Shown in pieces: positions 4,003 through 4,522 of a DNA stretch of 64,000 nucleotides. The notes beneath the pieces are model-generated. The model made no database searches. It was not told where the DNA came from and was given only the letters and a program-made list of their open reading frames with translations. The number at the start of each line of letters is the position of its first letter. Position 1 is the first letter of the stretch. Both the position numbers and the translations under genes were made by a program. This stretch comes from an uncultured virus (IMG/VR IMGVR_UViG_3300015608_001493) (Duplodnaviria > Heunggongvirae > Uroviricota > Caudoviricetes), in the IMG/VR virus record IMGVR_UViG_3300015608_001493; one strand, given 5' to 3'.

Positions 4003-4370
4003 GTATATTTGAAAAAGCATCACGCGAAAAACTAAGGTTCCCTTTTAATGGCACCGCTTCTGTGGAGCAACTTTGGGACGCAGATGTTAATCAGTTAACT
4101 GATTATGAATCTGAACTTATTGAAATTATTGAAAAATACGGCAAGAAAAACCGTAGAAACAAACGGAGAGTAACCAGAGAGGAAGAACGTAACATTCTGC
4201 GTTTGGAAATTGTAACTCATATTTTGAACACACTAGAAAGAGAAGCCGAGGAAGAGAATGTTCGTAAAGAACAAAGGCGTCAAGAACAAAAAATTCTTGA
4301 GGTTATTTCTCGCAAAGAAGATGCGGAACTTGAAAACATGAGCATCGAAGAACTCAAAAAACTTCTGTAA
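3999..4370 (+). CDS. conserved phage coiled-coil protein, translationally coupled to the 709 aa gene
   Basis: ATGA overlap; MSIFEKASREKLRFP N-terminus; charged C-terminal helix. Confidence 0.6.
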   Translation: MSIFEKASREKLRFPFNGTASVEQLWDADVNQLTDYESELIEIIEKYGKKNRRNKRRVTREEERNILRLEIVTHILNTLEREAEEENVRKEQRRQEQKILEVISRKEDAELENMSIEELKKLL

Positions 4371-4375
4371 TAACT

Positions 4376-4399
4376 TTGGGGGTAGGAAACTACCCCCAA
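4376..4399 (+). terminator. GC hairpin (terminator or processing signal) directly before the tRNA-like gene
   Basis: TTGGGGGTAG-GAAA-CTACCCCCAA; no U tract. Confidence 0.5.
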
Positions 4400-4401
4400 C
4401 T

Positions 4402-4489
4402 GGTCCCGTAACACATCATCGTTCTAAGGTGACGCTCTAAAAAGTGTAATTGGAAACAGCGTTTGGGAGTTCGAGCCTCTCCGGGATCA
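4402..4489 (+). tRNA. non-canonical tRNA-Arg(TCT)-like gene with rearranged D arm
   Basis: Acceptor GGTCCCG/CGGGATC, T arm GGGAG-TTCGAGC-CTCTC and anticodon arm TCATC-GTTCTAA-GGTGA. The D-loop-like GTGT-AATTGGAA lies 3' of the anticodon arm. Confidence 0.7.
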
Positions 4490-4522
4490 CACAGATTGGT
4501 AAAATTGAATTTTGATTTAAGT

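Follow-up and report, generated by a model that had tools for sequence, protein, structure and literature searches.

An unannotated family of probable phage arginine tRNA genes with half of the D arm behind the anticodon arm

The element and its parts

The DNA analyzed here, referred to below as the window, is a stretch of 64,000 nucleotides (nt) from an uncultured virus of the Caudoviricetes (IMG/VR record IMGVR_UViG_3300015608_001493). It belongs to a phage of virulent type with a GC content of 33% and genes for DNA polymerase, helicase, primase, rIIA/B, ribonucleotide reductase and endolysin. ARAGORN finds only three tRNA genes in the window, those of tRNA-Leu, tRNA-Thr and tRNA-Ser at 625-1570. 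An element of 88 nt that it leaves uncalled lies on the plus strand at 4402-4489, preceded by an open reading frame (ORF) of 123 amino acids (aa) and a hairpin; it has an acceptor stem, a T arm and an anticodon arm with the anticodon UCU, and no D hairpin. The element belongs to a widespread family of probable phage tRNA-Arg genes, hitherto without annotation, in which half of the D arm is located behind the anticodon arm, and we found 37 distinct homologs in viral contigs, metagenome contigs and cultured phages (alignment A7). An earlier note on this DNA had described such an arrangement, and every base of its segments is as transcribed there. AGA, the codon that UCU would read, is the commonest arginine codon in the window's 32 ORFs of at least 200 aa (199 of 456), and the three ordinary tRNAs likewise read A-ending codons.

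All parts of the element are given on the plus strand. The 5' strand of the acceptor stem (4402-4408, 7 nt) pairs at all seven positions, one G-U included, with 4482-4488. TA at 4409-4410 takes the place of the U8-A9 connector. Of the 19 members that share the window's 7/5 layout (a 7-bp acceptor stem with a 5-bp T stem, the other layout being 8/4, an 8-bp acceptor stem with a 4-bp T stem), 18 have TA right after the acceptor strand; the exception is L416, whose parse shifts TA by one base. Between positions 9 and 26, the place of the D arm in ordinary tRNAs, the window has only ACAC and one A. ACAC (4411-4414) corresponds to the 3' strand of the D stem (tRNA positions 22-25) and is the 5' strand of a helix, P1, whose partner is at 4444-4447. 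The A at 4415 is position 26; one base alone separates P1 from the anticodon stem in 37/37 members, and this base is A in 30 by script tally and probably in 31, L277 reading A by eye. The anticodon arm (4416-4432) follows with a 5-bp stem and the 7-nt loop GTTCTAA, the anticodon being at 4423-4425 (TCT). G32 in this loop had been listed in the earlier note as an atypical feature, a worry that can be dropped, as nine of the 37 members and the normal phage tRNA-Arg(UCU) genes L002, L009 and L011 have it too.

Behind the anticodon arm, CGCT (4433-4436) is the 5' strand of a second helix, P2, which resembles a variable-arm stem and pairs at 4/4 positions with 4458-4461. The linker CTAAAAA (4437-4443) leads from it to the 3' strand of P1, and this linker is A-rich in all 21 members that have P2. 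GTGT (4444-4447), the P1 3' strand, corresponds to the D-stem 5' strand (tRNA positions 10-13) and pairs with ACAC. It is followed by the D-loop equivalent AATTGGAA (4448-4455), with A14, G18-G19 at 4452-4453 and A20 at 4454, by a two-base connector AC (4456-4457, a direct reading of the sequence), and by the P2 3' strand AGCG (4458-4461). The strands are thus interleaved in the order P1 5', P2 5', P1 3', P2 3', P2 crossing P1 to form a pseudoknot. A TTT connector (4462-4464), whose last U stands in place of position 48, precedes the T arm (4465-4481); the base before the T stem is T in 19/19 members with the 7/5 layout. The T arm has a 5-bp stem and a TTCGAGC loop, and across the family its stem is fully paired in 37/37 members and its GTTC and A58 are invariant. 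The 3' strand of the acceptor stem (4482-4488) and a discriminator A (4489) close the element, and CAC comes next, hence no CCA is encoded in the window copy. The third acceptor pair, T-A in the window, is C-G in the close relative L005, with both sides changed. With canonical tRNAs the window copy shares a 7-bp acceptor stem with discriminator, a T arm with the GTTCRA motif, and an anticodon arm with U33 and a purine at position 37.

The upstream hairpin (4378-4397, plus strand), 4 nt before the element, has a perfect 8-bp stem and a GAAA loop, and is part of the context and not of the family. It has no T tail and is not terminator-like; it may help to process or stabilize the upstream mRNA. 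The earlier note saw the element as standing apart from other tRNAs behind its own hairpin. This is true of the window; elsewhere members lie among or beside tRNA genes in six cultured phages, and upstream of L005 the hairpin is absent.

Existing tools largely fail on this layout. ARAGORN called 0/37 family members and 2/2 normal controls. The Rfam tRNA model RF00005 does not match the window element at its gathering score (29 bits) or at E<=10, and two members of the short form described below pass it (PAK_P2 with 38.7 bits, L008 with 29.4 bits). A covariance model, R2, built solely from 12 relatives of another subtype, with the window and its own subtype excluded, has a single match in the 64 kb, at 4401-4489 (37.1 bits, E 2.1e-9). 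Since R2 matches nowhere else and compensatory changes keep both helices in relatives, the element is beyond chance. None of the listed GenBank rows matched by blastn annotates an element as tRNA: in one search, with 40 of 55 matching records listed, the annotation at the element is 'none' in 28 and 'hypothetical protein' in 12, and the other blastn searches gave 'none' in 12/12, and 'none' in 13 and 'hypothetical protein' in two of 15. An Rfam scan of the window and five carrier loci returned no other family, Y RNA included, only weak chance matches, among them IMES-4 (E 0.059), which falls on the upstream hairpin. Weak covariance-model matches in the carrier contigs and the window were also discarded as noise, leaving no paralogs with other anticodons there, with a model that is biased to the arginine loop.

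Homologs and covariation of the helices

Homologs were recruited by pattern scans of viral, metagenome and genome contigs with a script filter for a T arm and a closing acceptor stem, and by blastn against GenBank phages, two family members being among the queries. The window as blastn query gave one weak match over the odd middle part, in Vibrio phage 1.063.O, at an unannotated locus with the same arm order and different acceptor stem, T arm and P1 sequences. The family has at least 37 members, two of the pattern scans having yielded only part of their matches. Cultured carriers include KARL-1, PAK_P2, Av-05, AhSzw-1, Arash, Vibrio phages and Francob. The carriers are unrelated phages with hosts in Pseudomonas, Acinetobacter, Vibrio, Aeromonas, Escherichia, Salmonella, Limnohabitans and Streptomyces. 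Homologs with the same arm order, which the earlier note had proposed to look for, are therefore numerous.

The scans also returned the normal cloverleaf tRNA-Arg(UCU) genes L002, L009 and L011, which have the same anticodon arm, and many chance pattern matches in coding sequence, which were set aside; these made up most of 67 metagenome stretches, 40/41 prokaryote-genome stretches, and 16/34 and 10/17 stretches in later scans. Among the 41 matched prokaryote stretches, obtained with a pattern that required the G32 anticodon arm, there were 0 rewired elements, the remaining one being a normal tRNA-Arg. The Av-05 element matched 0/20,395 E. coli records. In three further stretches (L203, L204 and L231, from metagenome contigs and a Thorarchaeota metagenome-assembled genome), the anticodon-arm pattern matched a tRNA-like sequence whose anticodon loop is followed by a long insertion; this sequence may be an intron-bearing archaeal tRNA-Arg.

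The members fall into three subtypes. Sixteen belong to a short form of 75-80 nt with the 7/5 layout and no P2; 18 have the 8/4 layout, with an 8-bp acceptor stem, a 4-bp T stem and P2 present in 81-86 nt; and the long 7/5 subtype with P2, that of the window, consists of three members only (the window, its close relative L005, and L375). The acceptor stem is fully paired in 34/37 members, and the eighth acceptor pair of 8/4 members is an invariant G-C in 12/12 (alignment A6, columns 8 and 78). P1 and the anticodon stem of short-form members join into one long nested hairpin with an asymmetric internal loop. Because this form also lacks P2, the pseudoknot exists only where P2 does. The crossing pseudoknot proposed in the earlier note from CGCT and AGCG is thus supported for the window, whose subtype also shows covariation in this helix, and cannot be extended to the whole family.

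The helices were assessed on the 37-sequence alignment, made with MAFFT by sequence alone, and two further alignments (A4 and A5) were excluded from all counts, since MAFFT had split the acceptor 3' strand inconsistently and the mixture of subtypes had produced 108 messy columns. Of all cells in P1, the anticodon stem and the T stem, 96.3% are paired, compared with 37.1-49.7% when the 3' partners are slid, and the covariation score is 0.764 versus 0.211 in shuffles, with 0/500 shuffles reaching it. Twelve of the 13 pairs in these stems change on both sides. The inner three pairs of P1 are formed in 37/37 members with three or four pair types each, in seven strand combinations (CAC/GTG, CGC/GCG, CGT/GCG, CGG/CCG, ACC/GGT, TCT/AGA and CTC/GAG). 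Its outer pair, tRNA positions 13-22, is unpaired in the 16 short members; a pair at these positions is often non-Watson-Crick in ordinary tRNAs. Without guidance, RNAalifold predicts P1 enclosing the anticodon arm on the sequence-only alignment. The anticodon stem is paired 5/5 in 35/37 members and 4/5 in two, and all five of its pairs covary.

P2, scored by fixed positional rules, is present in 21/37 members, with 4/4 pairs in 17, 3/4 in three and 2/4 in one, and in 13 strand combinations; it is 80% paired versus 20-61% when slid. Within the window's subtype, GACT/AGTC in L375 differs from the window's CGCT/AGCG by two compensatory double changes. In alignment A6, which holds 12 sequences of the 8/4 layout re-aligned to a model without P1, the full pseudoknotted structure is 97.8% paired versus 41.7-54% slid, 0/500 shuffles reach its covariation score, and both sides change in all five P1 pairs and two of four P2 pairs. 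Both helices whose covariation the earlier note had suggested examining, ACAC/GTGT and CGCT/AGCG, therefore covary against slid-partner and shuffle controls. RNAalifold additionally pairs columns 10-11 of A7 with columns 50-51 (window 4409-4410 with 4447-4448), joining U8 to A14 and A9 to the last base of the P1 3' strand and bulging the first P1 base, with UA 18, CG 10 and UG 4 at one pair. This pairing might represent the usual U8-A14 tertiary contact in Watson-Crick form, or it might result from the mixture of subtypes.

Taken alone, the window sequence folds in another way. Its minimum free energy (MFE) and centroid structures have a local hairpin, ACGCT/AGTGT, in place of P1 and P2, which would make the element a real RNA without crossing helices, a D-armless tRNA-like molecule with two side hairpins. 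This fold is scarcely probable, as it finds no comparative support across the 37 sequences, whereas P1 and P2 covary. The local hairpin is 54.3% paired, a value equalled by 449/500 shuffles, and its covariation score is 0.095 versus 0.118 in shuffles, 406/500 of which reach it.

The window's DNA was found in wastewater, activated-sludge and marine metagenome runs of 8 studies. Two metatranscriptome contigs cover the element (X18, 4398-4498, and X19, 4278-4485), and a third, X20, spans the upstream ORF only. One of the two that cover the element is from a relative and shows 15 differences over the 124 nt that precede the element, against 0 over the 84 nt covered within it, with two 1-nt deletions and one substitution in the upstream hairpin. 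This contrast shows constraint on the element; it is no proof of transcription. We see next to no chance that the element is without function, be it a decayed pseudo-tRNA, a fragment left by rearrangement or a product of misassembly. The silence of ARAGORN and Rfam, the lack of an encoded CCA in the window and an unremarkable MFE would suit such an origin, but the 37 distinct homologs, drawn from many samples and from phages that are unrelated, show compensatory changes in each helix, and neither the recurrence of the same DNA across studies nor the unchanged element in the diverged relative is expected from it.

Arginine identity and the genomic slot

All 37 anticodons are those of arginine (TCT in 34, ACG in two and CCT in one), C35 being kept family-wide and position 36 being U or G. 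A scan that specified the GTG-NN-ATGGA and T-loop motifs and no anticodon recovered members that all have arginine anticodons. T33 and A37-A38 are found in 37/37 members, and so is G18-G19-A20 (GGA), with 17 of these members found without GGA in the search pattern. The discriminator is A in 13, G in 10 and T in 14. CCA, expected by chance at about 1/64 in each case, directly follows the discriminator in 24/37, and is not encoded in the window, L005 or Vibrio phage 1.063.O. Arginine identity for the bacterial arginyl-tRNA synthetase (ArgRS) consists of A20, C35, position 36 (U or G) and A/G73, with A20 and C35 as main determinants, and a main determinant in the D loop is unique to arginine (PMC9976931). 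The window has A20, C35, U36 and A73. The claim of the earlier note that A20 is kept and agrees with an arginine anticodon holds for every member found.

Members with other arginine anticodons occur in two settings. Short-form elements with the anticodon ACG in a CTACGAA loop were found in viral contigs, some longer than 150 kb (L345 and L418/L420/L430/L432); with the rewired layout in place, the anticodon has therefore switched and yet stayed arginine. Aeromonas phage AhSzw-1 has two rewired elements in tandem, 9 nt apart (L433:3907-3991 and L433:4001-4082). Its first copy, the sole CCU member among the 37, has the P1 helix CCCTC/GAGGG, the second copy has UCU, and CCA stands after both.

Members are found among or beside tRNA genes in KARL-1, PAK_P2, Av-05, AhSzw-1, Francob and Bitten. 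The element starts 14 nt after tRNA-Thr in KARL-1 and 3 nt after tRNA-Arg(gcg) in Francob, lies between tRNA-Thr and tRNA-Cys in Av-05 and between tRNA-Gln and tRNA-Lys in PAK_P2, and stands about 80 nt before tRNA-Arg(acg) in Bitten. PAK_P2 and Av-05 have 14 ordinary tRNAs each and KARL-1 has seven, none of them for arginine. The tRNA cluster of Acinetobacter phage KARL-1 is headed by an ARAGORN tRNA with the anticodon CTA, labelled Pyl (L413:623-697), a possible amber suppressor. PAK_P2 also has two tRNA-like genes at 89559-89632 and 90471-90555 of its record (L411:1272-1345 and L414:1472-1556; 26.5 and 20.8 bits), which score below the Rfam threshold and which ARAGORN misses. One is Trp(CCA)-like, the other has a long variable arm and both are CCA-ended; as candidates for rewired elements they were rejected, their layout being ordinary and low-scoring.

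The slot between tRNA-Gln and tRNA-Lys that holds the rewired element in PAK_P2 holds a cloverleaf tRNA-Arg(UCU) in JG004 and PAK_P4, whose flanks are 97-99% identical to those of PAK_P2. The D arm of this normal gene is GTGT-AATGGAT-GCAC in JG004 and GTGT-AACGGAT-GCAC in PAK_P4, and ARAGORN calls the gene while our model R1 does not. One element thus stands in place of a normal tRNA-Arg(UCU) in the same slot, and the relatives' gene has the same parts in canonical order, in keeping with the earlier note, which had argued that moving the relocated block back gives a nearly ordinary tRNA. The PAK_P2 neighborhood matches 138 Pseudomonas phage records, and tRNA-Arg is annotated there in 32 of the 60 listed. 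A tRNA-Arg was also among the PAK_P1 tRNAs found with tRNAscan-SE (Henry et al. 2015, PMC4309531), which fits an ordinary tRNA-Arg gene as the norm in the PAK_P1 group.

Across the whole record, eight carriers (G001-G004, Vibrio phage 1.063.O, KARL-1, PAK_P2 and Av-05) were searched for a normal tRNA-Arg(UCU), and only G004 has one. In this 87-kb contig, the normal tRNA-Arg(UCU) and a tRNA-Met lie at one end (L265:198-275, minus strand) and the element at the other (L268:104-184, minus strand); in a circular or permuted genome, about 0.3 kb would separate them. The two arginine genes have unrelated sequences, and the normal copy has A at position 8. Such a pair would suit a tRNA-Arg look-alike that works outside translation, as a decoy or inhibitor binding ArgRS, a modification enzyme or a host defence nuclease that targets tRNAs, or as a substrate on which cleavage is spent. 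The unusual core might be recognised differently by enzymes that rely on the D arm or variable pocket, 14/37 members have a discriminator U, and tRNA-cutting defences are common, with retron Eco2 cutting host tRNA-Arg among several others (PMC12916289). We nevertheless regard a role as look-alike as unlikely. The PAK_P2 element replaces the only tRNA-Arg(UCU) gene of its relatives, 7/8 of the carriers searched have no other tRNA-Arg(UCU), and anticodon changes that stay within arginine, together with CCA encoded in 24/37 members, suit decoding better than a decoy for a single nuclease.

Genes of HNH, restriction-endonuclease-like or T5orf172 type adjoin the tRNA-Arg slot, whether rewired or normal (L411:1587-1952 in PAK_P2, L438:3420-3827 in Bitten, L440:708-1118 in PAK_P4 and L001:1660-2199 in Vibrio phage 1.063.O), which suggests a tRNA-Arg cassette that is exchanged between phages and driven by homing endonucleases. 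In Streptomyces phage Francob, a gene for a Ro-like RNA-binding protein (L437:1037-2653) lies about 1.3 kb upstream of the tRNA cluster that contains the element. Both kinds of neighbor bear on the idea that the element is some other tRNA-like module: an integration or homing target, in view of the homing-endonuclease-like genes beside it in PAK_P2, Bitten and Vibrio phage 1.063.O; a Y-RNA-like partner of Ro, as in Francob; or a processing or punctuation signal for RNase P, for which acceptor and T arms alone are enough. Any of these is very unlikely, because each could dispense with a conserved arginine anticodon loop, with A20 and with an encoded CCA, because no Ro gene lies nearby in most carriers, and because the Rfam scan gave no match to Y RNA or other families.

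Proposed fold and function, and relation to known tRNAs

We consider it quite likely that the element encodes a working arginine tRNA of the phage, with UCU reading AGA, whose strands are connected in an altered way. In the proposed fold, the chain would run from U8-A9 directly into the 3' half of the D stem (22-25), position 26 and a normal anticodon arm, and only then, within the variable region, into the 5' half of the D stem (10-13) and the D loop (14-21), before the T arm and the acceptor 3' strand. P1, the D stem, would form from two distant segments and stack on the anticodon stem as usual; the D loop would still be within reach of the T loop and A20 would still be offered to ArgRS. The window's P2 would clamp the inserted segment like a variable-arm stem and, by crossing P1, produce the pseudoknot. 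In canonical tRNAs, position 9 lies beside 22-23, 44-45 lie beside 10, and 21 is near 48. If the segment 10-21 leaves its place between 9 and 22 and comes to lie between about 45 and 48, three short backbone links would therefore be exchanged for three of similar span. All base-pairing and tertiary partners could stay. Such a gene could have arisen in few steps, if 10-45 was duplicated in tandem and the outer copies were then lost. The 12-bp acceptor/T stack that RNase P and EF-Tu require, as 7/5 or 8/4, is intact, and the RNA is expected to adopt the L-shape, to be processed by RNase P with CCA at its end, to be charged by the host ArgRS and to decode AGA.

Several observations weigh against this interpretation. 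The encoded CCA is missing in 13/37 members, the window copy included, and the discriminator U in 14/37 is outside the published arginine A/G73. The RNA-library contigs over the element show no ends and may be DNA carry-over. Some of the invariance is built into the search: 20/37 members were found via patterns containing GGA and the T-loop motif and the filter demanded acceptor closure, so that the constancy of GGA, T loop and acceptor stem is partly a product of what was required. Sixteen members have no P2, and in L288 and L268 it is weak, so that the pseudoknot is not essential to the family. The single-sequence MFE fold of the window prefers the local hairpin, with an energy that is not unusual (z = -1.09). 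Lastly, in the complete contig G004 the element coexists with a normal tRNA-Arg(UCU), a redundancy that a plain decoder would not need.

A further proposal concerns why the working tRNA would be rewired, namely as an adaptive counter-measure by which ArgRS, EF-Tu and the ribosome would accept a tRNA that tRNA-targeting defence nucleases of the host, or the phage's own activities that degrade host tRNAs, do not recognise or cut. Escape from anti-phage tRNA nucleases and tRNA mimicry had been raised as possible roles in the earlier note. The backbone path through the core of D stem and variable pocket would be altered, with A20, the anticodon and the acceptor/T stack kept, and the spread over unrelated phages, often beside homing-endonuclease-like genes, would reflect a mobile 'protected tRNA' cassette. 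We put this forward tentatively and find it rather doubtful.

The closest known relative of the element is the ordinary phage tRNA-Arg(UCU). The window shares with L011 all 17/17 bases of the anticodon arm and 8/8 of the D loop. The GTGT-AATGGA motif recurs in JG004, there directly after U8-A9, and the U8-A9 connector, the T loop, the 12-bp acceptor/T stack and, in PAK_P2, the very slot of JG004 and PAK_P4 are held in common. The order is what differs: 8-9, [10-21], [22-45] and T arm in the ordinary tRNA-Arg, and 8-9, [22-~45], [10-21] and T arm in the element, which lacks the D hairpin of the former and in the window adds P2 crossing P1. Class II tRNAs (Leu, Ser and Tyr) are similar in length to the window copy (88 nt) and have a helix between anticodon and T arms, as P2 is. 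The 'loop' of this arm in the element, however, holds the D-stem 5' strand and the D loop and is part of a pseudoknot rather than of a free hairpin, and the element has the identity of arginine, normally a class I tRNA.

In allo-tRNAs the D hairpin has its usual position, and the variable arm is long and of serine type. They resemble the family in their 8/4 or 9/3 layout (NAR 2016, PMC5389517), with 18/37 members being 8/4, the same sum of 12 bp and an invariant G8-C pair. In contrast, the window copy is 7/5, and the family relocates a D strand and loop and has only arginine anticodons. The RNAs of permuted and split tRNA genes are processed by circularisation or splicing into canonical tRNAs. 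Such genes, known from Cyanidioschyzon and archaea (PMC3728597), also have gene segments in non-canonical order, but the short form of the element is already tRNA-sized at 75-80 nt; because nothing is left to remove, the mature RNA must keep the new order.

D-armless mitochondrial tRNAs, such as nematode mt-tRNA-Ser (PMC7609411), likewise have no hairpin between acceptor and anticodon stems; they have lost the D arm and have a flexible core, while the element keeps the stem, G18-G19 and A20 elsewhere in its chain. The tRNA-like structure (TLS) of the turnip yellow mosaic virus (TYMV) type, TLS-Val, is a virus-encoded, L-shaped tRNA mimic whose pseudoknot forms the acceptor stem, located at the 3' end of a genomic RNA (PMC7749636). 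The element, for which an L-shape is predicted, differs in having an ordinary acceptor stem, a pseudoknot in the core, and the form of a free-standing gene among the tRNA genes of DNA phages. A published description of such a layout was not found in open-access (Creative Commons) PMC papers and bioRxiv preprints, in agreement with the earlier note, which knew of no such tRNA class, and a report in a subscription journal is possible; in a 2020 review of non-canonical tRNAs (PMC7609411), the terms 'pseudoknot' and 'phage' are absent.

With ARAGORN missing 37/37 members and the listed GenBank rows lacking a tRNA annotation, phage tRNA repertoires, and the codon-usage arguments based on them, miss an Arg(UCU) gene, including in the therapeutic-candidate phages PAK_P2 and KARL-1. 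The function is directly testable, as there are cultured carriers alongside near-isogenic relatives with the normal gene, and the main determinant that arginine has in the D loop provides a testable link between structure and identity (PMC9976931). If our interpretation is true, the family would be the first natural class of tRNA to link the same tertiary parts in another order. The L-shape would then be independent of cloverleaf connectivity, with a pseudoknot in the core of some members, which would bear on the evolution of tRNA and on its re-engineering.

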